Of a stretch of 64,000 bases of DNA, positions 25,586-37,090 are shown piece by piece. The DNA lies in NCBI GenBank assembly GCA_028277725.1, contig JANQFX010000118.1, forward strand, positions 241 through 64,240, in the 5' to 3' direction. Each line of letters opens with the position of its first letter. Position 1 is the first letter of the stretch. This DNA is from Thiohalocapsa sp. (lineage in GTDB: Bacteria; Pseudomonadota; Gammaproteobacteria; Chromatiales; Chromatiaceae). The notes beneath the pieces are model-generated. The model was given only the letters and a program-made list of their open reading frames with translations. It made no database searches and was not told the DNA's origin. The translations under genes were made by a program, and so were the position numbers.

Positions 25586-27469
25586 ATGCCAAGACAACGT
25601 TTGCTTTCTCTGGCCATGGCCGCTGCGCTTGCGGGTGCTGTCGTGCCGGCAGTGGCTGTGAACATCGACCCCAGCACCTACAACGTCCTCGCGGAATCGG
25701 ATGTTGGAGCCTACAACGACTGGCTTGCGACTTGCACAAACGTGACAGCCGGGGTTGGCACTTGTGGCAGCGCTAGTGCCCCACTGGATAGCGATACCAC
25801 CCTATTCTTCTGGGACAGCGCCGGAGACTCCGACAATAGCGTCATCCAAGCCCAGTGGACCGATCCGGCCAAGAGCGTCCCCATCACGCAGGTGCGAATC
25901 TCGACGCCCCTGAGCGCAACCGAACTCATCGGCGTTCCAGGTGGCCCGTCGGATCTTCAGACAACGACAGGAACCAACGTCAGTTTTGCAGCAGGTGAAG
26001 CCTCTCAGGGGCAGGGCGTGTTCCTAGCCTATGGGCGAAATGTGTACGATGGCACTTTGGATCCTGGCGACTTGATCGGGCCGAACGACTTTCTCGCGAC
26101 GAACGCGGCGGTTCAGCCGGCGTTCATTTCATTCCAGTTCGGTGTCACCATGCCGGGCAGGGCCCAGCAGTCCCGACTTCATCAGACGAATCCCTTCCAG
26201 TACTACAACCCCTTGGGGGCAGATACGGCAGTCCCCGACGCTTTGAAACCGGACAATGTCGACCTGACCATCGGTATAGGGGACGCGGTTCAGCTGCAGC
26301 AGGGTCAGTCGGTCGAGGTCGAGTTGTTTGCCGTTGGCGGTTTTGACCCGAACGGTCAACCCCAAATCCCGGGAGACGTACCCGTCGGCATTTCCGACGA
26401 CCTCGCGATCGAGTTCCTGACCGAGGTGTTGGACGTCACCCAAGGCGTCGGTGACCTCACCTTCTCGCCCACCCGTGCGGGCACCGTCAATGGGGATAAG
26501 GTCAGCCTGACGGCCACCAGCGACGGTACGGCTTCCACGGAGCTGGACGGGCAGTTCGATGCATTTGCGGAGAGCGCGATCAAGGTCCAGGGTAGCCCCG
26601 CTGCCACCCCCTTCACGCTTGCCGCCCCCGGAACATCCGGGGATAGCACGGACCGGGTCTACGAGTTGGACGCGAGCGGCATTGCACTAACGCTCGATGA
26701 CGCCGGCAAGACCGGCGACGATTTCAAGTCTAGCGGGGCGCAGGCGGTGCGGCATACGGGTCTCGCAGCCGCTGATGTTGTGTACAATCGAACCATCCAG
26801 GGTGAGGTGGTCGGCCCCGTCTTGGGCGTTGAGGGCAAGATGAACCCGGATGATCCGGCCGCGACGCTGGAGTACGGCAGTACCATCAATCTCAGCACCA
26901 TCACTGACCCGGTCGATGCCAAGGCCTGCAACCAAGGCTCCGTTGGTGGTTGCCCGACGCTTGAGTTGGCGATCGGCAATCTGTTCGGCGAGGCCCTCGG
27001 CGATCTGACCAGCCTTAGCATTCGCAATATCGCGTTGGGCGGCCCCGGAGCCGCTTTCTTCAATCTCTTCGCCGATGACTGCTCGTCGGGGACCGACTAC
27101 ACCGAGAGCGGGGTCTTGACCCAAGGCGACGCAACCGGCGGCTTCGACTTTCCGGGGCTCTGCGTCACCTTCACGCCGCCGGCCTCGGATCCGGGCACGG
27201 GGACGGCCGATCTGAGCGGCGTCGCTGCAACCGTCGACCGCCAGTTCACCGCAACCCTGACCCTGTTCTCCGACATGAACCGCGAGTTTGAGACCTTCAA
27301 CGACGGGGAGTCGACGACGCTGTACAACCTGTCCGCTTGGGCGCGTTATTCGTCTCCGTCCACGGCCCCGCTGCCGGCGCCGCTGGCGCTCCTGGCCGCG
27401 GGCCTCGTCGGCCTGGCCGGGGTCCGCGCACGGCTGGGACAGCGCTCGCATACCCGCGCCGACAACTGA
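25586..27469 (+). CDS. Secreted surface protein with a PEP-CTERM-type (PLPA variant) sorting tail
   Basis: Signal peptide MPRQRLLSLAMAAALAGAVVPAVA; acidic T/G/D-rich beta body; C-terminal APLPAP + TM helix + Arg cluster. Confidence 0.8.
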   Translation: MPRQRLLSLAMAAALAGAVVPAVAVNIDPSTYNVLAESDVGAYNDWLATCTNVTAGVGTCGSASAPLDSDTTLFFWDSAGDSDNSVIQAQWTDPAKSVPITQVRISTPLSATELIGVPGGPSDLQTTTGTNVSFAAGEASQGQGVFLAYGRNVYDGTLDPGDLIGPNDFLATNAAVQPAFISFQFGVTMPGRAQQSRLHQTNPFQYYNPLGADTAVPDALKPDNVDLTIGIGDAVQLQQGQSVEVELFAVGGFDPNGQPQIPGDVPVGISDDLAIEFLTEVLDVTQGVGDLTFSPTRAGTVNGDKVSLTATSDGTASTELDGQFDAFAESAIKVQGSPAATPFTLAAPGTSGDSTDRVYELDASGIALTLDDAGKTGDDFKSSGAQAVRHTGLAAADVVYNRTIQGEVVGPVLGVEGKMNPDDPAATLEYGSTINLSTITDPVDAKACNQGSVGGCPTLELAIGNLFGEALGDLTSLSIRNIALGGPGAAFFNLFADDCSSGTDYTESGVLTQGDATGGFDFPGLCVTFTPPASDPGTGTADLSGVAATVDRQFTATLTLFSDMNREFETFNDGESTTLYNLSAWARYSSPSTAPLPAPLALLAAGLVGLAGVRARLGQRSHTRADN

Positions 27470-27870
27470 CCTTGGCCCGCGTCTCGCTCTAGCACGGATG
27501 TCGAACGGGTCTCGGTGCAACGGCCCGCTATGTCGCAATGAGGCGGCCCCGGATTGTCGGCCGGTCGGCTGTCCGTGTTCGGATCTGCGCCGGAGTGCAT
27601 CGACCAAGGGGTGAATCGTCCAAGCCGCTTCGTGGCGAGATTGCTGTCTAGATCGTTCCGCCCATTCATCGGAACAAGCAAGCCAAGCGCTGAAACCCCT
27701 GATCCCGGCGGCATTAGCCGATGCCGCCCGTGCCACTATCGCCCCGCCACTGTCACAGGCGCACCCAGCCTCTCCGGGTAGTTCGTCGGTCCCCTCGCAC
27801 CCTTGAACGGCTGGAGCCACGCGGCGACAGATGCCGGGGCCCCTGCCCAAAAGACCCTCGATCCCACCCC

Positions 27871-28803
27871 ATGTCCGCCATCACCGCCTTTCCCCTGCTG
27901 GCGCTGTTGTGCTCGGCACTCGCCTTCTGGCAGCCCGGCTGGTTCACGCCGCTGAGGCCCGCCATCGTGCCCCTGCTCGGGCTGATCATGTTCGGCATGG
28001 GCGCCACGCTGACCTGGCGGCAGTTCAGCGAGGTGGCGCGACGGCCGAGGCGCGTGGGCCTGGGGCTGTTGCTGCAGTTCGGTGTCATGCCGCTGGCGGC
28101 CTGGTGCATCGGCCTCTGGCTCGGGCTGTCGCCGGAGCTGCTGGCCGGGCTCGTGCTGGTGGGGGCGAGCCCCGGTGGCACGGCGTCCAATGTGGTCTGC
28201 TACCTGGCGCGCGGGGATGTCGCCCTGTCCATTACGCTGACCGCGGTCTCGACCCTGGTCGCCGTTGCGGCGACGCCAGTGCTGACCTGGCTCTATGTCG
28301 GGCGCGAGGTGCCCGTGCCGGTCTGGGACATGCTGCGCTCCATCCTGCAGATCGTCCTGCTGCCCGTCGGTCTGGGGGTGCTGGTGAACACCTGGCTCCT
28401 GCGCGGGCGCGACGGTGCCGCGGTGCGCCGCGTGCGTGCTGCCCTGCCCCTGCTGTCCATGGCGTCGATCGTGCTGATCATCGGCATCATCGTTGCGCTC
28501 AACGTCGACAACATCGCCGCCGGCGGCGCGCTCATCGCCTTGGCCGTCGTCCTGCACAACGCCATCGGCCTCGGTGCCGGTTACGGCCTGGGCTGGCTGG
28601 CCACACGCGATGCGCGCGCCGCGCGGACCCTGGCCATCGAGGTCGGCATGCAGAACTCGGGGCTCGCGGTGGCACTCGCGGTCAAGTACTTCACGCCGGC
28701 CGCAGCCATCCCGGGTGCCCTGTTCTCCATCTGGCACAACCTGTCGGGTTCGGCGTTGGCGGCGGTGTGGGCCGGTCGCCAGCCCAGGGAGACCGCGCCT
28801 TAG
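27871..28803 (+). CDS. Bile acid:sodium symporter family transporter (BASS/PanS-like)
   Basis: Motifs 'MFGMG', 'QFGVMP', 'PGGTASNV', 'IEVGMQNSG' and 'FSIWHN'. Confidence 0.92.
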   Translation: MSAITAFPLLALLCSALAFWQPGWFTPLRPAIVPLLGLIMFGMGATLTWRQFSEVARRPRRVGLGLLLQFGVMPLAAWCIGLWLGLSPELLAGLVLVGASPGGTASNVVCYLARGDVALSITLTAVSTLVAVAATPVLTWLYVGREVPVPVWDMLRSILQIVLLPVGLGVLVNTWLLRGRDGAAVRRVRAALPLLSMASIVLIIGIIVALNVDNIAAGGALIALAVVLHNAIGLGAGYGLGWLATRDARAARTLAIEVGMQNSGLAVALAVKYFTPAAAIPGALFSIWHNLSGSALAAVWAGRQPRETAP

Positions 28804-28838
28804 TGACCACGTCGCATAAGATGATAACCATGCTCGAT

Positions 28839-28871
28839 TCGTTGTCGTTGTCGTTGTCGTTGTCGAAATCG
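28839..28871. repeat. (TCGTTG)n tandem repeat; half copy of the GTTGTCG element family
   Basis: TCGTTGTCGTTGTCGTTGTCGTTGTCGAAATCG resembles the left arm of the 59552 element. Confidence 0.6.
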
Positions 28872-29054
28872 TAAGCGCCAACATCGCGGACGTCTTGACG
28901 AATACTTGATCACAAACGCGCTAACGGACACGATCCGGAATCGATCCGCGGTCGGCGTTGTTTGCGGAGCGCGAGCGCAGCAGGTCTGGGCGCGGAGTCT
29001 TGACACCCGGGCCAGGCAGATCAGCCTGCAAACAAGAAAGAGTTGCATCCGCAT

Positions 29055-29069
29055 TGATAATTGTGGACA
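29055..29069 (+). promoter_or_regulatory. Possible Fur box
   Basis: TGATAATTGTGGACA versus TGATAATnATTATCA: perfect left half, about 50 bp before the HMA2 gene. Confidence 0.35.
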
Positions 29070-29118
29070 CTCTCCAGCAGACGACATCAACAGTCCTTCG
29101 CGTGAGCCCCGACAAGCC

Positions 29119-29472
29119 ATGAGCCAGTACATCCATCACGTACCCGGTCGACTCCGGATCCGCTCCCAGTCCCTGCGTTGCCGTTCGGACAAGGCGCTCG
29201 CCGCCCAGAACCGGCTCGTCTCCATGGACGGGGTGCAGTCGGTGCGCATCAACCCGCGCGCCGGCAGCATCACCATCCTCTATGATGCCGATGTGCTGGG
29301 GCAGGCCGACCTGCTGGGCACCCTGCACGAGGTCGGCTGCATGTCCGGCACCGTTCGCTCCGACGAGCATGTCCGCAAGATGGCCGATACTTTCGGTAAG
29401 GCATTGGTCGGTGCGGTCATGCAGAAGGCCATGGAGCAGTCGGCGCGCACCCTGGTGGGCGCCCTGATCTGA
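29119..29472 (+). CDS. HMA2-type domain protein (FezC-like)
   Basis: 'YIHHVPGRLRIRS...GVQSVRINPRAGSITILYD': ferredoxin-like fold without CxxC, plus an amphipathic C-terminal tail. Confidence 0.75.
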   Translation: MSQYIHHVPGRLRIRSQSLRCRSDKALAAQNRLVSMDGVQSVRINPRAGSITILYDADVLGQADLLGTLHEVGCMSGTVRSDEHVRKMADTFGKALVGAVMQKAMEQSARTLVGALI

Positions 29473-29947
29473 TGCCGCCCAGGACTGCGCAACCCCACCG
29501 GCGCTTATCCGAGCACGATGCGCGGCAGCGTAAGGCATGACCGGCCGCCCAGCCGGTCCTTCCACACTTGAGCCGGACCGGTACTGAACTCGCAGGGTCG
29601 GCCCGCGCCGGTCGGTCCGTGCCGACCCCTTCATCCTCTCCTCCCCGGCCGGGCTACTGCGAGCCGAAACAAGGGCCGCGGGCATCAGTGCTCGCTCGCT
29701 GTACCGCCCCGTGCGTCCTTGCACGGCGGTGTGGGCCGCCTTACAGTCCTTCTGCTGAGTTGCGTTATTTTCCTTGCGGAATCGAGTCGCCCCCCTACTC
29801 GGTTCTGCGGGGCCGTGCAAGAGAGTAGACTTGCGCGACCGGTACGCGCCCGGTCCGGGCGCCGGGATCGTGCGTCGGGTCCTCAGGCGGACCGGGCGGC
29901 GCCAACGCGATGATATAGCCGCCATTTGCGACAGGAGAGCAGACAAC

Positions 29948-30931
29948 ATGAGCGAACACGAGCAGGGTGGGCGAGCCCAGACGGGGGCGCAGGGAGGGAT
30001 GCCGCAGGGCATCTCCGGCGCCCAAGGCCAGGCTGCGGCCGGCTCGAATGTTGGAGAAGGCCAGGCGATCTATGGCGCCATGGGATCGGTGCAAGGTCAG
30101 GCGCCAGCGCAGGGCGCTGGCAAGGACACACAGCCGAGCGCTGGGCAGGCCGCTGGACCCGCCATGGCCGACGTACAGCAGGGTGGACCGGCCATGCAGC
30201 CACCCGCACAGGAGGCCGGGCAGCAAGCCGGGATGGCCGCGATGCAGGGCTATTCCGCGAATGGCGCCGCGGGCTATCCGGCTGGACCTGCCGCGCAGGG
30301 CTATGGCGTGGCTGCCTATGCGCAGTACGCCGCACCGATGATGGGCGCGGGCCCAGCCGGTTATGCGCAAAGCGACCAGATGCAGGGCGGACAGATGCAC
30401 GGCGCGATGTCGGGCGCTACCTACGCCTCGCCGCAGATGACGCCTGCGCAGACGGCCCAATCCCAGACCGCTCAGGCGCAGGTGCCGCCCGGTGCTTACC
30501 CCCAATACGCGCCGCAGTACGCCATGCAGTACCCGGCCCAGCCCGCGCCCCAGTATCTGCCCCAATACCCTTACGCCTATGCGCCGGTTGCCCCGGCAGC
30601 GATGGGTGCCGGGCCCCAGCAGCCGCCGGCCGGCACCCCCGGGGCCGCCGGCGGCCAAGCCGGCCGCGGCCAGGCCGGCATCGCCTCCCTGATGGAGGAG
30701 ATCAACAACGGCGGCACCGGCCTCAATAGCCTGAGCCAGATGCTCAACCTCGACGACACGGAGTTCTGGAAGGGCGCCCTGGTGGGTGCCGCCGCGGTGG
30801 TGCTGTTCACCAACGAGTCGGTCCAGAACGCCCTGTTCAAGACCGGCGCCAAGACGTCCGAGGCCATGCGCAGCGGTGTCGACAAACTCAAGTCGGCGGC
30901 GGGCGATGCCGCGGGCGAGGCGAAGGAGTAG
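29948..30931 (+). CDS. Q/G/A/Y/P-rich low-complexity protein with a C-terminal GxxxG membrane helix and amphipathic helix (YtxH/FezA-like)
   Basis: AGGAG upstream of ATG 29948. About 260 aa disordered region, then 'FWKGALVGAAAVVLFTNESVQ'. Confidence 0.7.
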   Translation: MSEHEQGGRAQTGAQGGMPQGISGAQGQAAAGSNVGEGQAIYGAMGSVQGQAPAQGAGKDTQPSAGQAAGPAMADVQQGGPAMQPPAQEAGQQAGMAAMQGYSANGAAGYPAGPAAQGYGVAAYAQYAAPMMGAGPAGYAQSDQMQGGQMHGAMSGATYASPQMTPAQTAQSQTAQAQVPPGAYPQYAPQYAMQYPAQPAPQYLPQYPYAYAPVAPAAMGAGPQQPPAGTPGAAGGQAGRGQAGIASLMEEINNGGTGLNSLSQMLNLDDTEFWKGALVGAAAVVLFTNESVQNALFKTGAKTSEAMRSGVDKLKSAAGDAAGEAKE

Positions 30932-30937
30932 CGACCC

Positions 30938-31315
30938 ATGAGCGAGACCTACCCAGTCCACTACCTGCCGTCGTCCATGGTGCAACAGAGCCCGGCGCCC
31001 GCCCCCGCGGCTACCGACTGCTCGGCACTGATCGGATACGCCACCCTCGGCGCCGTTGTGGGTGCGTCCGCGGCGGGTGGTGCCAACATCCTGCGGGTGC
31101 AGCGCGAGGAGCTCACCGCCACCGAGGCCCTGGCCGATACGGGCAAGGCTGCCCTGGCCGGCGCTGCTGCAACCGCCGTGGCTGGGGCCGCCGCGGGTCT
31201 CGTGGCCAAAGAGGGGGTCACCCGCCTGGCCGTGCTGCTCGCCGCCGGCACCGCCGTGATGTACGGTATCCAGCGCCGCTGGGGCGCCGAAGCGCTGGTG
31301 GAGGATCAACCATGA
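30938..31315 (+). CDS. MamC-like membrane protein (copy 1)
   Basis: 'LGAVVGASAAGGANILRVQREELTATEALADTGKAALAG' closely parallels the MamC/Mms13 TM-loop-TM as recalled. AAGGAG RBS. Confidence 0.75.
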   Translation: MSETYPVHYLPSSMVQQSPAPAPAATDCSALIGYATLGAVVGASAAGGANILRVQREELTATEALADTGKAALAGAAATAVAGAAAGLVAKEGVTRLAVLLAAGTAVMYGIQRRWGAEALVEDQP

Positions 31316-31497
31316 GTTCCCATATGCAGCGCCAGCGCCATGGCGTCGCGAAGAACATCGCCGAGGGCGTCGGTGGGCTCGTGGTCGGCGCCGCCGCCGT
31401 GGTGTTGTTGCGGAGCCTGTTCAAGAAGAAATCCTCGACAACGACGCCGGCGGCGCCGAACCAGTTGGCTGAACCCACGAAGGAGGTCGAGGCATGA
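31312..31497 (+). CDS. Small single-TM GxxxG protein
   Basis: GGAGG RBS; ATGA overlaps at both ends; 'GVGGLVVGAAAVVLLRSLFKKK'. Confidence 0.65.
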   Translation: MSSHMQRQRHGVAKNIAEGVGGLVVGAAAVVLLRSLFKKKSSTTTPAAPNQLAEPTKEVEA

Positions 31498-31895
31498 GTC
31501 ACTACGAATCCAACCCCGGCCTGCCCTTGGCCTATCACGACCAGGCCCTCAGGCACGATGCCTATCCGAACGCCCACCAGCGCTCCGCTTATCCGGCGGG
31601 CGCCGGCAGCAGCTATCTGGAGCTCGGCAAACTCGGGGCCACGGTCGGGCTTTGCGGCGCGGCCGCGGCCAACCTGCACAAGCTGCGGAACGAGCAAGTG
31701 ACCGGCGGCGAGGCGATCATCGACAGCCTGCGCACGGGCGCCGCCGCGGGGCTCGCTACGGCGGCGGCCGGCTACATCGCCAACCAATTCAGGAGCCCCA
31801 CCACCTCGCTTGCGGCGACGCTGATCGCGGGCACCGCCTTTATGTATTTGCTGAACAGCGATGGCCCAGTGGAGGCCGAAGGAGACAAGTCATGA
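31494..31895 (+). CDS. MamC-like membrane protein (copy 2)
   Basis: 'LGATVGLCGAAAANLHKLRNEQVTGGEAIIDSLRTGAAAGLATAAA'; AGGAGG RBS. Confidence 0.75.
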   Translation: MSHYESNPGLPLAYHDQALRHDAYPNAHQRSAYPAGAGSSYLELGKLGATVGLCGAAAANLHKLRNEQVTGGEAIIDSLRTGAAAGLATAAAGYIANQFRSPTTSLAATLIAGTAFMYLLNSDGPVEAEGDKS

Positions 31896-32344
31896 GCTAT
31901 GGCCAGAACCAACAGGGCCAGATGATGGGTTACCCGGCCGGTCAGATGCCAACGGGCCAGATGGGCGCCGGCCAGATGGGCGTTGGCATGCAGCAGGCGA
32001 TGGGCGGCACCCCGATTGGTGCGAATATGGCTGCGCAGATCCAGTATCCGCAGTCCGGGTATGTGCAGCCGGGCTACTATGTCGCGACCTATCAGCCCTA
32101 TCCGCAGCAGCAGCCCAGCCTGCTGTCTGGGCTCACCACCGACCGCTTCCTGAAGGGCCTGCTGGTGGGCGCCGCGGCGGCCTACATCCTCACCAACGAG
32201 TCCGTTCAGCGCACGGCCATCAAGGGTGCGGTCAAGGCGTGGACGACCGTGCAGGGCGGTCTGGAGGAGGTCAAGGAGCGCTTCCAGGACGCCGAGGCCG
32301 AATTGCACGCGGCCGAGGCCGCGAAGCCCTCGAACGCCGGTTAG
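31892..32344 (+). CDS. Q/G/M/Y-rich N-terminus plus GxxxG helix and coiled coil (YtxH/FezA-like)
   Basis: AAGGAG RBS; ATGA overlap; 'FLKGLLVGAAAAYILTNESVQ...EEVKERFQDAEAE'. Immediately precedes the ATPase. Confidence 0.75.
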   Translation: MSYGQNQQGQMMGYPAGQMPTGQMGAGQMGVGMQQAMGGTPIGANMAAQIQYPQSGYVQPGYYVATYQPYPQQQPSLLSGLTTDRFLKGLLVGAAAAYILTNESVQRTAIKGAVKAWTTVQGGLEEVKERFQDAEAELHAAEAAKPSNAG

Positions 32345-32393
32345 GGACGCGCCTCAACCCAGACAGAGCAGTTGACCGCGCTGGCTCCTTACG

Positions 32394-34538
32394 ATGTCGA
32401 GCATGGATTATCACATCGTACACGAGTTGCCGGGCCGGTTGCGGCTGCGCATCCCGTCCATGGGCGAGCCCGGTTACGAGGCGTCCTATCTCGAGTCCTG
32501 GATGGACGTGGCGGCGCCCGTGCAGGAGGTCCGCTGTAATCGCGCCTCCAGGTCGCTGGTGATCATCTTCGAGCAGCGTGATGGGGCCAGGGACGCGATT
32601 CTGCGCCGGCTGGACGCCTTTTCCCCGGAGCAGATCCCCGGCTTCAGTGAGGACGGCGTCCGCGACGCCGAGGTCGCGCCGATGATCACCACGGCCGCGA
32701 CGATCGCCCTGCTTCCCTTCCTCCCTCCGGTCATGCAGCGGCTGCTGACCTTCGTCAACGTCAGCTCCACCCTCGCCAAGGGGGCCGATACCCTGGTGAA
32801 CGAAGGGGTCAAGATGGAGGTGCTCGACGCCCTGGCCGTCGGGCTGGCGGCGGGCAAGGGGGAGGTCTACACCGCCAACATCACCGACTTCCTGCTGAGC
32901 CTGGGCGAGTTCCTGGAGCGGCGCACGGAGCGCCAGTCCGACCGCCTGCTGCGGCGCCTGTTGCGCCCGGAGCCGGCCATGGCCTGGGTGGAGCGCGACG
33001 GCGAGCTGGTGCAGGTGGCCGGGGACGAGGTGCTGGCGGGCGAGATCGTCAGCGTTGGCGTCGGAGAGACCATCCCGGCGGATGGGCGCGTGGTGGAAGG
33101 TGCCGCGCTGGTCAATCAGGCGGCGGTCACGGGTGAGGATGTGCCTGTGCGTCGCGAGGCGCCGAAGCGGGTCATCGCCGGCTCGACGCTGGTGGAAGGC
33201 CGCATCCGCGTGGAGGCGACCCATGTCGGCGACGACACCACCACGGCGCGGGTCTCGCGCTTCATCCAAGACTCCCTGAGCAAGCAATCGGATACGCAGC
33301 GGCTCGCCGAACGCCTTGCCGACAAGCGGGTCTATCTGACGCTGGGCACGGGTGGCCTGGTCTATGCCCTGACCCGCGACCTGACCCGGCTGCAGGCGGT
33401 CTTTTTGGTGGACTACTCCTGCGCGCTCAAGCTCGGCACACCGGTGGCGTTCAAGTCCGGCATGTACCGGGCCGCGGCACACGGCGTGCTGATGAAGGGT
33501 GGCGATGCCATCGAGCACCTGGCCGCGGTGGACACCGTCGTCTTCGACAAGACCGGTACCCTGACCCATAGCGACCTCATCGTCACGGACGTGGTCGTGC
33601 TCGGCAACGGCGAGACCTGTTCCGAACAGGACCTGCTTGCGCTGGTGGCCTCCGTGGAGGAGCATGCAAGCCACCCGGTCGCCAAGGCCGTGGTGGAGGC
33701 CGCCCGCGAGCGCGATCTGCAGCACATCTCCCACGGCGAGGTGGACTACATGGTCGCCCACGGCATGGCCGCGGATATCAAGAAGGGCGGGCGCATTTTC
33801 GTCGGTAGCCGGCACTACCTCGAGGAACACCTCGACATCCACTTCGGCCGCTTCGAGCAGCGCATCGAAGCATTCCAGGAGGAGGGCAAGACGCTGCTGT
33901 TCGTCGGCAACCAGGACGGGCCCGTGGGCCTGGTCGCCCTGCGCGACACCCTGCGAGAGGACGCATCTACCGCGCTGCAGCGGCTGCGCACCCTCGGCAT
34001 CGAGCGACTGGTCATGATCACCGGTGACCGCCGCAACAAGGCCGAGGCCCTGGCGCGCGAGGTGGGCATCGACGAGGTGTATGCCGACATGCGCCCCGAG
34101 GAGAAGGCCGGCGTCATCCAGCGACTCCAGCAGGAGGGGCGCAAGGTCGCCTTCGTCGGCGACGGTGTCAACGATGGGCCCGCCCTCGCCACCGCGGAGG
34201 TGGGCATTGCCATGCCGCGTGGCGCAGACATCGCCCGGGCCACCGCCGATATCGTGCTGATGGACGATCGCTTGGACGTGGTCGCGGACGCTCGCGAGAT
34301 TGCGACTAAGACCATGCGCATGATCCGCGGGAACTTCAACGCCGCCGTCGGCATCAATACCGGCGTACTGGCCGGTGCCATCATGGGCTGGCTGTCCCCG
34401 GTGGCTAGCGCGGTGCTGCACAATGGCACCACCATCGGTATCCTGCTCAATGCCCTGCGCGGCGTGCAGCTATCCAGCGACGCCGAGCAGCCGTTGGGCC
34501 GGCGGGTAACCGCATTTCGGGATTCGCTGGCCGAGTAA
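32394..34538 (+). CDS. fezB: Heavy-metal P-type ATPase, P1B-6 / FezB type
   Basis: N-terminal 'HELPGRLRLR', TGE, DYSCALKL in place of CPC, DKTGT, HP, TGD, GDGVND and HNGTT. Start may be 32403. Confidence 0.85.
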   Translation: MSSMDYHIVHELPGRLRLRIPSMGEPGYEASYLESWMDVAAPVQEVRCNRASRSLVIIFEQRDGARDAILRRLDAFSPEQIPGFSEDGVRDAEVAPMITTAATIALLPFLPPVMQRLLTFVNVSSTLAKGADTLVNEGVKMEVLDALAVGLAAGKGEVYTANITDFLLSLGEFLERRTERQSDRLLRRLLRPEPAMAWVERDGELVQVAGDEVLAGEIVSVGVGETIPADGRVVEGAALVNQAAVTGEDVPVRREAPKRVIAGSTLVEGRIRVEATHVGDDTTTARVSRFIQDSLSKQSDTQRLAERLADKRVYLTLGTGGLVYALTRDLTRLQAVFLVDYSCALKLGTPVAFKSGMYRAAAHGVLMKGGDAIEHLAAVDTVVFDKTGTLTHSDLIVTDVVVLGNGETCSEQDLLALVASVEEHASHPVAKAVVEAARERDLQHISHGEVDYMVAHGMAADIKKGGRIFVGSRHYLEEHLDIHFGRFEQRIEAFQEEGKTLLFVGNQDGPVGLVALRDTLREDASTALQRLRTLGIERLVMITGDRRNKAEALAREVGIDEVYADMRPEEKAGVIQRLQQEGRKVAFVGDGVNDGPALATAEVGIAMPRGADIARATADIVLMDDRLDVVADAREIATKTMRMIRGNFNAAVGINTGVLAGAIMGWLSPVASAVLHNGTTIGILLNALRGVQLSSDAEQPLGRRVTAFRDSLAE

Positions 34539-34649
34539 CAGCCATCCACAAGGGCCGCCGCTCCAGGGACGGTTGATCGCGAGACCCGTGTCGGCGTGAC
34601 CGGCCGCGGTCTGAGCCTTGTGGCCCTAGTCATTCGAGGACACCAATCG

Positions 34650-34811
34650 ATGCCTTTCCCACTCATCCCCTTCCTGTCGGGTGCGGCCTTCGGTTCCGCG
34701 CTTACCTATCTGTTGACGCGCAGGTCCGAGGTCATCGAACTCAGGCCGCCGCAAACGACCGCCGGCACGGAAAGCGCTGCCGACAAGGGCAGCTCGGCCG
34801 GCCCTGCTTGA
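34650..34811 (+). CDS. Small GxxxG membrane protein
   Basis: GAGGA RBS; MPFPLIPFLSGAAFGSALTYLLTRR. Confidence 0.55.
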   Translation: MPFPLIPFLSGAAFGSALTYLLTRRSEVIELRPPQTTAGTESAADKGSSAGPA

Positions 34812-34901
34812 GCCCGGCCGGCCGGGCTCCGCGTGAGGAGATCTGGGTTCGAGACCTGGGTTCAGGAAAGCTCGTCCTGGCAATCGGCGCAGGCAGTGGC
34901 T

Positions 34902-35693
34902 TCAGGCGATGGGCTCCGGCGCCAGGGCATGGGCCGCGAGACCTCCACCGAAGCGCTCGCGCATCCTCGTCAGCAGAGGCGCTCGATCAGCGTTTGGCGA
35001 GCGCAATAGCCGCTGTGTGGCCGGCCCCCAGGCGTCGGGTCGGCCTGCGGGTAGGGTCCTGACCCTGGCGCTGCCGGATGCCTGGCCTTTATCGGTCGCG
35101 GACCGAGTCTGGCGCCCCGTCCTAGCGCCTTGTGCGGGCATGTGCCGAGTCCATTCCTGCCACCAGCAGCGCACCGTCGAACGCAGGAGCCAGACCGTGA
35201 GGCGGCGCTGCACCGCGCACCAGGGGCAACTCGTGGCCTTGCGAGGGCCGCAGCGGTCGCGTGGGCGGATCATGGCCGGGGGATGTGTCCGCGCCTTGCC
35301 CCGTTGCCGCGCTGGGCCTGGTCGAGGGGCGCGTCGCCATTGGTGCCCGCTCCAGAATGCGTTCCCGCTGCCTTTGCCCTTACGACGATCGAGCGGCGCT
35401 TCATCGCGCTCTGATGCGTTGCTTTGACATGGGGTGCTGCGCAGGCGCTCCGGGGTCAAGGTTACCGGGTCGTAGCGCACCACCAGGCTCGCGCAGCGCA
35501 TATTGAGGCGTACGGAGTGCACCCCCGGCTGGCGTGCCATGGTGGCGGCGATGTCCTGCATCCAGGCCGCCTCGAGGCTGGCCTTGTCGCGTGTGCCCGC
35601 AGTCCGCCCTGCGGCGTTCGGCGGCCGTTGTTGCGGCGGCGACTGGATACGGAAGCGGACCCTTCCCGGTACCTGATGGCGTATTTGGAGCAT
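34902..35693 (-). CDS. HMA2-type domain protein with an Arg-rich CPWC-containing extension
   Basis: 'IRHQVPGRVRFRI...GVHSVRLNMRCASLVVRYDP' is paralogous to 29119 and to the ATPase N-terminus. Confidence 0.6.
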   Translation of the reverse strand: MLQIRHQVPGRVRFRIQSPPQQRPPNAAGRTAGTRDKASLEAAWMQDIAATMARQPGVHSVRLNMRCASLVVRYDPVTLTPERLRSTPCQSNASERDEAPLDRRKGKGSGNAFWSGHQWRRAPRPGPARQRGKARTHPPAMIRPRDRCGPRKATSCPWCAVQRRLTVWLLRSTVRCWWQEWTRHMPAQGARTGRQTRSATDKGQASGSARVRTLPAGRPDAWGPATQRLLRSPNADRAPLLTRMRERFGGGLAAHALAPEPIA

Positions 35694-35735
35694 GGCTGAC
35701 TCGAGAAAAACACATTGATCCTGTCCGCGTACTCT

Positions 35736-35754
35736 ATTGCGAATCGCTTGCATT
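35736..35754 (-). promoter_or_regulatory. Putative Fur box
   Basis: ATTGCGAATCGCTTGCATT, an AT-rich 19-mer about 43 bp upstream of the 35693 start. Confidence 0.5.
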
Positions 35755-36110
35755 AGCAATGATGCGTCGGATGTCCTATGCTCGAGGTGTCCGAGTCTAA
35801 CCGGGAGTCCGTGTAGCTGATGCGAAGCGATTCTGACAAGACATGCAAGCGTCGCGCGCCGTCGGGCGCGGGGGGCGTTTGCGAGGGTTCCAGCCCTGAG
35901 GGCGGCCCGGTTGCACCGGCTTCGCAGTTTCGCCGCCGTGCCTGGCGCTGGTTTGCCCAGACGGTCCGGGCGATGCCTTTGACGGGACGCGGACGCCGCT
36001 GGGCACTGCTGAGAGCCCTGGCGGCGGAGCGGGCGACGACCGGGCCGCGTGGCCGGTGAGTCGAGCCTGAACGGCGACCGTAGGACCGGACGCCCTGTCT
36101 TGAGGTCCGG

Positions 36111-37090
36111 CTATTTCGTCGCTCCGCCTGCTGAGGTCGCGCCATACCATCGCTCCACGGTGTCGAGCAGGGACTCGCGGGAGAGCGGTTTGGTGACGAA
36201 GTCGTCCATGCCTGCGTCCAGGCAGCGCTGTCGCTCCTCCTCCAGGGCCTGGGCGGTCAAGGCGATGATGGGAACGCGTCCGGCGGGGCTTGCGAGCCTG
36301 CGCACGCGGCGGGCCGTCTCCACACCGTCCATCACGGGCATGTCCACGTCCATGAGCACGCAGCCGAGGGGGCCAGAGCAGATCGTTTCCAACGCCTTGG
36401 CGCCGTCGTCAGTACGGCATAGCCTGCCTTCTTCAGCATCGCCTTGGCGATGGCCGTATTCGTCGGCACGTCGTCCATCACCAACACCGGCAGCGCCGCC
36501 TTGTCGTCCGTTCCCTTGTCGAAACTTGGGGTGCGGCAGGGAGGGATAGGGTCCGGTTTCCGGTCGGCGCGCCGGTGTCGACGGCATGGCCAAGCAGATT
36601 GACCAACACCTGGCGCAGGCGCAGCGGGTCCAATAGCGCGACCCTGGGCAAGGTCTTCGTCCAAGGCCGCCCGCACGTCGTAGCCCTTGGCCTGCGCGAT
36701 GGGGTGTACAACGTCCGCGGCGGCGCGCACCGCATGCAGGATGATGCGTAGGTACGCCAGGTCCTCGTTGGCCAGGACGCCATCGGCAAAGCTGTCCAGG
36801 GAGGCCAAATCCTCGGACAGCACGGCGTCGCGGGCGAGCACGGCGAAGTTGGTCGTGACGTCGTTTGCCCGTGCGGCGAGGCCGTCCTGATGTGCCTGGG
36901 CCAGGAAGTTGAGGCTGGAGCCCACCAGGAGGCCGAGCAGCAGGAACTCGATCAGGGCAATGCCGAGGACGGTCTTTGCCCGGAAGAACAAGTGCCAAGA
37001 GCGTCGCCGCGGTGCGGGCGAGCCGTCGGGGCGGGGTTGCGCCCGAGACCGCTCCGATGCAGGTGCCGGGCCTGGATCAGGTCTGGTCAT
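36111..37090 (-). pseudogene. Decayed hybrid sensor histidine kinase / response regulator
   Basis: TM and sensor start (KTVLGIALIE...DAVLSEDLASL), HATPase N-box (DPLRLRQVLVNLLG) and receiver (VLVMDD...VLMDVDMPVMDG...TKP) lie in three different frames. HisKA and G-boxes are missing. Confidence 0.8.

Follow-up and report, generated by a model that had tools for sequence, protein, structure and literature searches.

Two paralogous proteins of a Thiohalocapsa ferrosome operon combine a prion-like, predicted disordered low-complexity domain with a conserved hydrophobic GxxxG module

The fez (ferrosome) operon of Thiohalocapsa sp. encodes two paralogous proteins, hereafter QGlong and QGshort, in which a prion-like low-complexity N-terminal domain, predicted to be disordered, is joined to a conserved module with a hydrophobic GxxxG helix. 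Judging from sequence comparison, this design (low-complexity head and hydrophobic tail) is kept in hundreds of bacteria and is apparently new for ferrosomes: as a preliminary description of this DNA had supposed, a literature search gave no text describing it for these organelles, and the words "disordered", "low complexity", "tyrosine" and "repeat" are absent from the text of the preprint on the GxxxG-motif Fez proteins (10.1101/2020.01.10.902569). Both genes lie in the window, the whole stretch of 64,000 nucleotides analysed here, which comes from a draft assembly (121 contigs, 83.66% complete); the sequencing runs containing it are metagenome DNA only.

QGlong (P0001, 327 aa; 29948..30931, + strand) consists of a G/A/Q/P/M/Y-rich low-complexity region with about 4% charged residues (residues 1-239, 29948..30664) and a conserved module (residues 240-327, 30665..30928) with helices at 243-253, 259-265, 271-287, 290-298 and 303-326. 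QGshort (P0002, 150 aa; 31892..32344, + strand) has a Q/G/M/Y/P/A-rich region with zero charged residues (residues 1-76, 31892..32119) followed by its own conserved module (residues 77-150, 32120..32341), formed by helix 77-100 (FLKGLLVGAAAAYILT), a T-N break and helix 103-143. The C-terminal modules of the two proteins are paralogous (hhalign probability 99%, E 7.9e-18, 68 columns), and both reading frames, together with the peptides first quoted from them, are present letter for letter. An AGGAG Shine-Dalgarno sequence lies 8-9 nt 5' of the QGlong start (ATG 29948), and GAAGGAGA lies 7 nt 5' of the QGshort start (ATG 31892), which overlaps the stop of the preceding gene as ATGA (4 nt). Moreover, the Met start and open frame of both genes are conserved in same-genus and same-family orthologues. 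It had been conceded beforehand that the true starts might lie downstream of the low-complexity segments, but these sites and conserved starts place them upstream. It is therefore extremely improbable that the segments are untranslated, whether through downstream starts or as spurious high-GC ORF extensions. Long spurious ORFs do arise in high-GC genomes, and the in-frame GC3 of the low-complexity parts (0.78 in QGlong, 0.80 in QGshort) is below the 0.92-0.94 of the C-modules; nevertheless, the Shine-Dalgarno sites are strong, the ATGA overlap couples QGshort to the preceding gene, Met start, frame and composition are kept in more than 100 gene-called homologues from GC-diverse taxa, and the enrichment in Q, Y and M, which have AT-rich codons, runs against the GC bias of the genome.

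The genomic context is that of a ferrosome operon, as first proposed. Upstream of QGlong is a gene for a small HMA_2 protein with an R-rich motif (29119..29472, + strand; Pfam HMA_2 E 1.9e-10, 41.4 bits, cut-off 30), which by its sequence is FezD-like, of a soluble chaperone type, and whose C-terminus bears GKALVGAV, resembling the QGlong and QGshort anchors. Three further + strand genes separate QGlong from QGshort, coding for a MamC-like two-helix membrane protein of FezF type with Y and P in its N-tail (30938..31315; hydropathy and NCBIfam), a small single-helix protein with GLVVGAAAVVLL, an anchor-type Gly/Ala motif (31312..31497), and a second MamC-like two-helix membrane protein with a Y/P/H-rich N-tail (31494..31895; NCBIfam MamC E 7.1e-9, 35.9 bits). 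The helix of the small protein is strongly hydrophobic (Kyte-Doolittle 19-residue maximum 1.97), and homologues of it occur in many loci. QGshort is followed by FezB, a P1B-6-type ATPase whose N-terminal part includes an R-rich segment resembling HMA_2 (32394..34538, + strand; TIGR01525 E 3.1e-152), and an ORF on the opposite strand (34902..35690, - strand) encodes a divergent HMA_2-like protein with the R-rich motif PGRVRFRI. The latter is possibly FezC-like, and its homologues are found near the cluster in several loci (for example L017, 1e-38, and L040, 4e-33).

The P1B-6 signature of FezB in fez operons consists of the transmembrane metal-site motifs D[Y/F]SCA and HNxxT (10.1101/2020.01.10.902569). 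The FezB of the window has DYSCA and HNGTT, with D340, Y341, C343, A344, H676, N677 and T680 invariant (n=18), and its N-terminal R-rich motif (RxR / RxRxR), HELPGRLRLRIP at residues 10-21, includes the invariant R15 and R17 (n=18). The gene order of the window (HMA / GxxxG / 2-TM / GxxxG / FezB) is that of the six-gene operon of Shewanella putrefaciens, in which two GxxxG genes are likewise interleaved with a gene for a two-TM protein (10.1101/2020.01.10.902569). QGshort lies directly upstream of fezB (at most 800 nt) in 79 of 80 named loci; in the one remaining locus a contig end interrupts the sequence. The gap is at most 150 nt in 64 of the 79. Among the 66 loci with at least 2.5 kb 5' of the short paralogue, QGlong is found upstream of QGshort in 63 and a MamC-like gene in 62. 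The FezB metal-site motifs, the R-rich motifs in FezB and the HMA_2 protein, and the gene order together identify a true ferrosome operon, of which QGlong and QGshort are, on this sequence evidence, two translated paralogous members.

GxxxG-motif Fez proteins have been described as FezA in Desulfovibrio magneticus and as FezE and FezG in S. putrefaciens (Grant et al., 10.1101/2020.01.10.902569). From gene order and features, rather than from sequence homology, QGlong matches the FezE type and QGshort the FezG type; the 54 matches obtained with the Rhodobium orthologue include no sequence under the name Rhodopseudomonas or Shewanella, and the homologue searches reached none named Desulfovibrio either. 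In FezA of D. magneticus the hydrophobic region is described as N-terminal (10.1101/2020.01.10.902569), whereas in QGlong and QGshort it lies near the C-terminus behind the low-complexity domain.

The N-terminus of QGlong was said to be dominated by Q, G, A, P and M and poor in charge, and the counts agree. Residues 1-232 of P0001 contain A55 G40 Q39 P28 Y16 M15 and only nine D/E/K/R, with a charge-free run of 96 residues, while residues 1-76 of P0002 contain Q17 G14 M9 Y8 P8 A7, and its first 83 residues include no charged one. The coding-like background of the genome is Q 3.6%, Y 2.1%, M 2.3%, R 8.4% and L 11.1%. By Q+Y content in a 60-residue window, P0001 ranks second among 2966 coding-like ORFs; P0002, which is outside the ranked set, reaches 0.317, between the listed third (0.333) and fourth (0.30). 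This composition extends across the homologues (557 representative clusters at E<=1e-3). Pooled over 120 low-complexity regions (P0001, P0002 and 118 listed homologues of P0002), it is Q.158, G.149, A.146, P.135, Y.117 and M.069, with D+E+K+R at about.033 (K.002, R.012), and the QGlong family (n=25) is similarly G.211, A.170, P.151, Q.132, M.069 and Y.054. In addition, Q/G/A/P/M/Y/S/H/N make up at least 70% of the region in 84 of 92 diverse representatives, where its length ranges from 12 to 210 residues and the median aromatic content is 17%. The orthologue comparison, proposed beforehand as a test, thus bears out a deep conservation of composition and architecture: in the 120 close homologues and in these 84 of 92 representatives the composition is conserved, and the sequence itself is not.

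The most oxidisable residues are among those enriched (M about 7%, Y 5-12%, H 3-5% across family sets), and the Fe(II) of ferrosomes is very oxygen-sensitive (10.64898/2026.06.16.732667). One could imagine, purely speculatively, Met/Tyr/His/Trp-rich chains around the Fe(II) store acting as a sacrificial redox shield that scavenges oxidants. We consider this very unlikely, since it leaves the Q/G/P/A richness and the exclusion of charge unexplained and ferrosomes form under anaerobic conditions (10.1101/2020.01.10.902569).

AlphaFold2 predicts both N-terminal domains to be disordered, with pLDDT below 50 for QGshort 1-75 and block-mean pLDDT of 42-56 for QGlong 1-240, in both cases without secondary structure. 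They are thus prion-like in the usual sense (long, disordered, Q/N/G/S/Y-rich segments poor in charged and aliphatic residues), but poor in Asn and Ser and rich in Ala, Pro and Met. The prion-like low-complexity domains of FUS type are also G/Q/Y-rich, nearly uncharged and disordered, and GGYGQGGYGQGGYGQ in some homologues (P0034) adds to the likeness; the QG domains differ by their Ala/Pro/Met richness, their scarcity of Ser and Asn, their non-uniform aromatic spacing and their tethering to a membrane module. In well-studied phase-separating prion-like domains, even aromatic spacing is a hallmark. The preliminary description had pointed to a Tyr-spaced, sticker-like block, but the aromatic gap-CV in 181 proteins shows no extra regularity against 300 shuffles (mean z +0.29; 23 proteins at z<-1, 45 at z>1). 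The GQM repeats claimed for QGshort did not hold up either: TRF lists only brief arrays of low score in the region (53 or less, no more than 2.5 copies), and a GQM-type array is not among them. The high Pro and Gly content speaks against amyloid. Among bacterial organelle-associated proteins, McdB, involved in carboxysome positioning, is comparable in that its sequence is variable while a disordered region and the capacity for phase separation are conserved; unlike the QG proteins, it is soluble, has a charged IDR and a partner ATPase (McdA), and serves a protein-shelled organelle (PMC13052382).

The motif KG-x-LVGAAA-x4-TNESVQ, described as a shared C-terminal anchor, is found in both proteins, but it is not terminal, 40-50 further helical residues lying beyond it. 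In QGlong, helix 271-287 is the hydrophobic helix GALVGAAAVVLF and helix 303-326 forms a basic tail (AlphaFold2). The GxxxG motif is G276-ALV-G280 in QGlong and G89-LLV-G93 in QGshort, both Gly being invariant in the family alignments. All 27 invariant columns of QGshort fall inside residues 85-137, and they include the polar N102, E103 and Q106, immediately after the hydrophobic helix. The proposed hydrophobic anchor therefore stands as a conserved GxxxG module, but not as a canonical transmembrane helix (about 19-21 residues), which was rejected for a core of only 13-15 residues and Kyte-Doolittle 19-residue maxima of 1.17 (P0001) and 1.09 (P0002) against the usual threshold of 1.6. YtxH-like proteins (PF12732) similarly have a Gly/Ala-rich hydrophobic helix followed by a long amphipathic helix, and several homologues are labelled "YtxH domain-containing" in UniRef/NCBI, as are the nearest ESM Atlas clusters. 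Membership of YtxH was rejected: P0001 and P0002 have no Pfam match at E<=1, let alone one at the gathering threshold, and only 10 of 25 relatives match PF12732 (best E 0.021). We know of no low-complexity domain in YtxH proteins.

Other P-type ATPases have single-helix partners such as phospholamban, FXYD and KdpF. By analogy, the invariant C-module might bind FezB, or a complex of FezB and the MamC-like protein, and tune transport or assembly. The adjacency of QGshort to fezB in nearly every locus, the density of invariant residues (27 in about 55 module positions, polar ones included) and a helix too short for an independent membrane span all favour such accessory subunits. However, the role would be needed for both paralogues despite their different tails, and the wide conservation of low-complexity composition would be left unexplained. 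We judge this reading improbable, also where it gives the low-complexity domain a secondary role, for example in recruiting iron donors or HMA_2 proteins.

The two-helix neighbours bear on the side of the membrane at which the QG proteins act. They are distant homologues of the magnetosome protein MamC, as indicated by sequence comparison with NCBIfam NF038051 (E 1.6e-6 and 28.3 bits for the product of 30938..31315, under the cut-off of 100). MamC proper was rejected, the scores of 31 proteins (26-47 bits) lying below the equivalog cut-off of 100. All 31 proteins of the MamC-like family align with the greater part of NF038051 (E 2.4e-12 to 8.8e-6). Their N-tails are rich in Y (8.4%) and P (12.8%), with at least three Tyr in 47 of 75, and in one database protein, P0118, a MamC-like protein is fused directly to a QGshort. 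The inter-helix loop of MamC is predicted to lie in the organelle lumen (PMC6206293), so that its termini would be cytoplasmic. The Y/P-rich tails and the P0118 fusion are accordingly counted for a cytoplasmic low-complexity domain, as are N-termini unlike signal peptides and a helix too short for a transmembrane span.

The charges flanking the hydrophobic helix point the other way. The preceding flank is acidic or neutral in both families, and the 20 residues after it carry a net charge of about +3 in QGshort (213 proteins) and +2 in QGlong (26 proteins); the tail is net positive in 24 of 26 QGlong members, while in QGshort the first 20 residues are basic and the distal part acidic. If the helix spans the membrane, these flanks would imply an N-out, lumenal low-complexity domain, and the near absence of Lys and Arg from that domain would ease translocation of the N-tail. 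Amelogenin, a disordered protein rich in Pro, Gln, His, Met and Tyr, keeps calcium phosphate amorphous and sets granule size. A lumenal mineral matrix that does likewise for iron phosphate is the main rival to a cytoplasmic scaffold, although we find it fairly unlikely. The mineral inside ferrosomes consists of ferrous phosphate with a disordered structure (10.64898/2026.06.16.732667), and the adjoining genes are homologues of MamC, whose loop faces the magnetosome mineral (PMC6206293). However, the membrane would have to be crossed by N-tails 75-260 residues long, the hydrophobic helix has only 13-15 residues, the N-termini of both families, inspected by eye, do not look like signal peptides, acidic residues for Fe(II) binding are very scarce, and the P0118 fusion and the MamC topology (PMC6206293) point to the cytoplasm.

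We tentatively favour QGlong and QGshort as cytoplasmic-face ferrosome scaffolds with cohesive disordered domains, which is quite possible if a little short of probable. The C-module (a 13-15-residue Gly/Ala-rich GxxxG helix, a T-N-E break and a helix net positive over its first 20 residues) would most likely keep the protein on the ferrosome membrane at its cytoplasmic side, either inserted shallowly (monotopic) or packed against FezB, the MamC-like proteins or the small protein with the GxxxG helix. The uncharged, aromatic-rich disordered domain would extend into the cytoplasm, where the low-complexity domains and the Tyr/Pro-rich MamC-like N-tails could make many weak Tyr/Gln/Pro contacts. 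The resulting cohesive layer might gather the Fez proteins in a membrane patch and organise the vesicles or keep them together; through membrane association and self-association at this face, the proteins may influence vesicle number, curvature and clustering. The preliminary description had them form condensates or amyloids that could cluster, curve or chain the vesicles, which is conjecture. The non-uniform aromatic spacing counts against a cohesive scaffold, as does the finding that, over 27 loci, the aromatic content of one paralogue does not follow that of the other (rho -0.05 for Y). Moreover, work on membrane bending by tethered IDRs suggests that a disordered layer with mutual attraction, if placed at the cytoplasmic side, would curve the membrane opposite to the direction needed to bud into the cytoplasm.

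A non-cohesive entropic brush would avoid this difficulty, steric crowding on the cytoplasmic face bending the membrane toward the cytoplasm during budding, a direction that suits IDP-crowding work; after budding, the same brush could keep vesicles from fusing or from invasion by ribosomes or nucleoid. The high Pro and Gly content, the absence of predicted structure, the freely varying domain length and the uneven aromatics would all fit. Still, a pure spacer needs neither 8-17% Tyr throughout nor near-total charge exclusion, and steric repulsion is stronger with charged brushes, so we hold this to be unlikely. The cohesive scaffold can also be put in a more specific form, which we regard as rather doubtful: a deeply conserved bacterial prion-like family that forms a membrane-tethered, Tyr/Gln/Pro-driven cohesive ferrosome coat of QGlong, QGshort and the Tyr/Pro tails of MamC-like proteins, a coat that seeds the Fez membrane patch and governs how vesicles bud and cluster.

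Two other systems invite comparison. MamD is Mms7 and MamG is Mms5, and these magnetosome proteins have Leu-Gly repeats. The Mms proteins differ from the QG proteins by these repeats and by full-length transmembrane helices, as opposed to Q/G/P/Y-rich domains and a short helix, while the distal tail of QGshort is acidic like the C-terminus of Mms6. P0001 and P0002 match no NCBIfam family at E<=1 and hence not Mms6, MamD or MamG, assuming that the library covers these. Nevertheless, Mms6 and Mms7 resemble the QG proteins in being small, in being assigned to an organelle membrane and in pairing a single hydrophobic helix with a low-complexity segment rich in Gly, and their genes adjoin MamC-type two-helix genes in an iron-biomineral organelle, as the QG genes do (PMC6206293). 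As to the second system, the genome also encodes two small G/Y-rich ORFs that resemble sulfur globule envelope proteins, with hydrophobic N-termini like signal peptides. In purple sulfur bacteria these envelope proteins are Gly/Tyr-rich, of low complexity and secreted, and coat periplasmic sulfur. They provide, in the same bacterial lineage, a low-complexity coat on an inorganic inclusion, but unlike the QG proteins they are secreted, lack the GxxxG module and lie outside the fez operon.

The formation, shape and arrangement of ferrosome vesicles are an open question, a clear function being so far available only for FezB, and a 2026 review asks what bends the ferrosome membrane, given that the fez operon has no dynamin-like protein (PMC13463818). 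The proteobacterial-type operon nearly always encodes two proteins of the same plan, a large aromatic-rich disordered domain and a small hydrophobic module, which makes QGlong and QGshort concrete candidates for the structural or organising factor still to be found in ferrosomes. They would also offer a natural bacterial system for the study of membrane-tethered low-complexity domains. The MamC homology of their neighbours, as read from sequence, points to ancestry or components that ferrosomes and magnetosomes have in common. Should the domain prove lumenal, the QG proteins would represent biomineral matrix proteins of a new, non-acidic type, serving amorphous iron phosphate. If, instead, the cohesive coat is real, it would provide the first natural example of a bacterial organelle with a lipid boundary that is organised by a condensate of low-complexity domains, and its partner proteins would tie ferrosomes evolutionarily to the MamC/Mms module of magnetosomes.

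QGlong (P0001, 327 aa, window positions 29948-30931, plus strand) and QGshort (P0002, 150 aa, 31892-32344, plus strand) are two paralogues that each join a low-complexity N-terminal head to a conserved C-terminal module. They are very probably translated and conserved structural components of a ferrosome operon, the head being disordered and prion-like and the module a GxxxG helical one. Both lie in a tightly packed operon of seven genes on the plus strand (29.1-34.6 kb of the window), which begins with an HMA_2 protein (29119-29472, Pfam HMA_2 E 1.9e-10) followed by QGlong, a first two-helix protein matching NCBIfam MamC (30938-31315), a 61-aa single-helix protein (31312-31497), a second two-helix MamC-like protein (31494-31895), QGshort and a P1B-type ATPase (32394-34538, TIGR01525 E 3.1e-152), with 4-nt ATGA overlaps at three junctions. 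The motifs DYSCA, HNGTT and GRLRLRIP are all found in this ATPase, and their key positions are invariant among 18 aligned orthologues; it is therefore FezB, and the operon a genuine fez (ferrosome) cluster. The gene order agrees with that described for the six-gene operon of S. putrefaciens, FezD, FezE, FezF, FezG, FezB and FezC, that is, a soluble HMA protein, a GxxxG protein, a two-TM protein, a second GxxxG protein, FezB and an HMA protein, and the R. palustris operon is said to be similar (10.1101/2020.01.10.902569, in the parts of this preprint covered). This likeness is one of order and description, and no Shewanella, Rhodopseudomonas or Desulfovibrio name was found among the matches listed in a search with the Rhodobium orthologue or among the clusters looked up for 10 diverse representatives. 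Just downstream of fezB lies a divergently oriented HMA_2-like gene whose product has an R-rich motif (34902-35690, minus strand); several loci have a homologue of it close to the cluster, and it may belong to the ferrosome system. A search for the HMA_2 family matched none of 14 control genomes. The S. putrefaciens operon is reported to have been expressed whole in E. coli.

A gap of 475 nt (29473-29947) separates the HMA_2 gene from QGlong in the otherwise tight operon, and harbors no Rfam match, promoter-like or terminator-like site, or Fur-box match. More widely, no Rfam match was obtained in window positions 27000-37000, a promoter and terminator scan around the operon gave nothing convincing, and the Fur-box consensus had no match in the window with up to three mismatches allowed. 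The runs listed as containing the stretch are four DNA sequencing runs from one study, with no RNA run among them.

The same arrangement recurs in other genomes. With each species represented by one genome, a scan confirmed 257 relatives, and the best 80 loci of these 257 are found in Chromatiaceae (Thiocapsa, Thiohalocapsa, Halochromatium, Allochromatium, Marichromatium and others), in Thiobacillus, Thiothrix, Wenzhouxiangella, Competibacteraceae, Thioalkalivibrio and Woeseiaceae, and also in some Alphaproteobacteria (Rhodobium, Methyloligella) and one Magnetococcales MAG. In 79 of the 80 loci, QGshort is followed on its own strand by a FezB ORF at a distance of at most 800 nt, the exception (L092) stopping at a contig edge. 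Where at least 2.5 kb of upstream sequence is available (n=66), QGlong is present in 63 loci and a MamC-like gene in 62.

The QGlong head was initially described as dominated by Q, G, A, P and M and poor in charge, and that of QGshort as starting with GQM repeats; the peptides quoted in support are indeed present. Residues 1-232 of P0001 comprise 55 A, 40 G, 39 Q, 28 P, 16 Y and 15 M, and just nine of them are charged, while the first 83 positions of P0002 include no charged residue; the coding-like background of the genome has 3.6% Q, 2.1% Y, 2.3% M, 8.4% R and 11.1% L. For Q+Y content in a 60-residue window, P0001 ranks second of 2966 crude coding-like ORFs, and P0002, which was outside the ranked set, would fall at 0.317 between the third (0.333) and fourth (0.30) listed. 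Since Q, Y and M have AT-rich codons, this enrichment opposes the 68% GC bias. All rows that tandem repeat analysis of the DNA (TRF) gave here are short and score low, and the low complexity thus reflects composition rather than a recent repeat expansion. True peptide tandem repeats, with units containing HQDRYMGG, form the head in a Candidatus Parabeggiatoa MAG (L083:403-1368) and in P0192 and P0195; in this lineage the repeat heads reach about 200-260 aa on a QGshort-type module, far longer than elsewhere.

The true starts lie upstream of the low-complexity segments: the ATG at 29948 is preceded by AGGAG and that at 31892 by GAAGGAGA, and relatives keep the Met start and the open frame. The in-frame GC3 of the low-complexity parts is 0.78-0.80. 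That these segments are untranslated is thus extremely improbable.

Composition is also conserved across orthologues, the heads sharing a Q/G/A/P/M/Y bias although they cannot be aligned. Among 41 genomes, ten match, including that of the window, with 8 of 15 others of the same genus and 1 of 9 other genera of the family; in matching genomes the Met start, the open frame and the two-part design are all retained. The genome of the window itself has just two copies, a third match having an E-value of 0.45. A word-indexed search with QGshort gave 189 homologues at E<=1e-3, and the pattern used for the anchor, the hydrophobic segment of the C-terminal module, is present in 120 of 121 collected proteins, a pool drawn from the 120 of these 189 that were listed and including P0001. 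The pooled heads from this search (120 proteins, 8166 residues) have frequencies of Q.158, G.149, A.146, P.135, Y.117, M.069 and S.060, with D+E+K+R about.033. For QGlong, 28 homologues were found; 25 proteins including P0001 fit the anchor pattern, the other four being visibly of the same design, and the 25 heads (3815 residues) have G.211, A.170, P.151, Q.132, M.069 and Y.054, with D+E+K+R about.043. Finally, when 1.84 billion cluster representatives were searched with a profile, 557 matched at E<=1e-3; E-values of <=1e-10 were reached by 373 and of <=1e-30 by 43. The anchor pattern occurs in 94 of 142 further listed representatives, and 10 inspected misses show the design as well; in 84 of the 92 whose N-terminal part reaches 25 residues, Q/G/A/P/M/Y/S/H/N account for 70% or more of it, and the median charged and aromatic contents are 5% and 17%. 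Neither P0001 nor P0002 was matched by Pfam, NCBIfam or PADLOC, and a PDB sequence search with the family profile gave nothing at E<=1. Some members, like the nearest ESM Atlas clusters, bear the UniRef/NCBI name "YtxH domain-containing", but Pfam YtxH matches only 10 of 25 family members (best E 0.021). Pfam matches to SARAF (18 of 25 relatives, best E 0.0017) and EIF_2_alpha (8 of 25, best E 0.0041) were taken as compositional noise.

Tyrosine is a consistent feature of these heads. In 184 non-redundant N-termini it makes up 8-17% of each 10-residue bin except the 10 residues beside the anchor, with a peak 11-40 residues before the anchor, and at least two Tyr occur in the first 15 residues in 107 of 186 QGshort-type proteins, versus 59 of 2966 crude ORF N-termini of the genome. 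QGshort-type proteins have a semi-conserved, M-S-x-x-Y-Y-P-Y-P-like start, weaker in the window copy (MSYGQ...GYP), which may be a short linear motif. The preliminary description had seen a Tyr-spaced block in the QGlong head; however, aromatic gaps in 181 proteins are no more uniform than after shuffling (300 times for each protein; mean z +0.29; z<-1 in 23, z>1 in 45), and the impression of regular spacing is therefore without statistical support. In the 27 of 80 loci passing the motif filters, the content of Q, A and N co-varies between the two paralogues (rho about 0.6) and that of Tyr and total aromatics does not; as these loci are mutually related, this is weak evidence either way and nothing is concluded from it.

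The C-terminal modules of the two proteins are paralogous (hhalign probability 99%, E 7.9e-18, 68 columns), and an alignment of 25 QGshort proteins has 27 invariant columns, all between R85 and E137, the N-terminal half being unalignable. The motif KG-x-LVGAAA-x4-TNESVQ is present in both, as first noted, but they do not end in it, since 40-50 residues follow. AlphaFold2 runs with family alignments gave low-confidence, two-helix models. In QGshort, residues 1-75 have a pLDDT below 50 and no secondary structure, and helices span 77-100 and 103-143 (pLDDT 63-76); in QGlong, residues 1-240 have block-mean pLDDT of 42-56 and no secondary structure, with five helices between 243 and 326. In the segment first described as a putative membrane anchor, the hydrophobic core is only 13-15 residues long (GALVGAAAVVLFT; FLKGLLVGAAAAYIL) and the 19-residue Kyte-Doolittle maxima of 1.17 and 1.09 fall below the usual 1.6 and well below the 1.97 of the small helix protein, which means that the segment does not qualify as a canonical membrane span. 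Its Gly/Ala motif reappears as GLVVGAAAVVLL in the small helix protein and as GKALVGAV at the C-terminal end of the HMA_2 protein, and is thus shared by four operon products, which fits the idea of a common GxxxG interaction motif put forward in the part of the preprint covered (10.1101/2020.01.10.902569). The conserved module might serve as an accessory subunit of FezB, which would be compatible with the other readings; we consider this quite unlikely. A complex prediction for FezB with QGshort residues 70-150 scored 0.19, the mark being 0.32, a value that speaks neither for nor against such a role.

Directly behind the helix, a stretch of 20 residues carries a net positive charge, with a median of +3 among 213 tails of the QGshort type and of +2 among 26 of the QGlong type. 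Further on, the QGshort tail turns acidic (median -5); taken as a whole, 24 of 26 QGlong tails are basic. Such charges beside the helix, and heads almost free of Lys and Arg, would suit an N-out insertion, as the main alternative would have it, namely that the head is a lumenal matrix for the mineral. Amelogenin, a regulator of amorphous calcium phosphate, resembles the heads in composition. The ferrosome mineral is given as amorphous ferrous phosphate in one abstract (10.64898/2026.06.16.732667). We nevertheless regard a lumenal matrix as unlikely.

Additional evidence on sidedness comes from the two-helix neighbours. All 31 tested, the two of the window and 29 chosen from 75 extracted from loci (L017-L089), match most of the NCBIfam MamC model (NF038051) with E-values of 2.4e-12 to 8.8e-6, at 26-47 bits for a cut-off of 100. 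Judging by this similarity, the two-helix Fez proteins are distantly homologous to MamC, a protein of magnetosomes. A ferrosome-MamC link is unmentioned in the preprint text, and neither term occurs in the titles and abstracts, the parts covered, of literature matching both. The N-tails of the 75 MamC-like proteins (30938-31030 and 31494-31620, plus strand, in the window) have a median of 31 residues, with 8.4% Y and 12.8% P and at least three Tyr in 47 of 75, so aromatic-rich tails are common to several operon proteins. The inter-helix loop of MamC is predicted to lie in the magnetosome lumen (PMC6206293, in the part covered), which would place its termini in the cytoplasm. An apparent fusion of a MamC-like and a QGshort-type protein is present on one 1.7-kb metagenome contig (P0118, 252 aa) and could be a real fusion, a missed stop or a frameshift; if real, it would imply that the low-complexity domain and the C-terminus of MamC share one side of the membrane.

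The preliminary description was unaware of such a mechanism in ferrosomes, and in the titles and abstracts of the matches listed we likewise found no disordered or low-complexity domain in Fez proteins; in the passages covered, "disordered" concerns the mineral or other systems, and ferrosome with "low-complexity" had no literature match. For FezG, FezE, FezF and FezD, the preprint 10.1101/2020.01.10.902569 was the only relevant source among the matches listed, and its text lacks the terms "disordered", "low complexity", "tyrosine", "repeat", "MamC" and "YtxH". The gene class is known, but the conserved prion-like domain appears undescribed. Outside the window, contigs C63 and C57 of the same genome carry two small ORFs of 136 and 121 aa with Gly/Tyr-rich repeats (GYGYGRGYGHGYG...) and hydrophobic N-termini resembling signal peptides. 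In this they resemble the sulfur-globule envelope proteins of purple sulfur bacteria.

Strong aromatic enrichment with charge exclusion is typical of self-associating low-complexity domains, and its conservation in the heads favours cohesion; a non-cohesive steric brush seems rather improbable to us, and a redox shield very much so. Because the N-termini are unlike signal peptides, the helix is short and the similar MamC-like tails are on the presumed cytoplasmic side, we tentatively favour a reading in which QGlong and QGshort may form a cohesive, disordered layer on the cytoplasmic face of the ferrosome.
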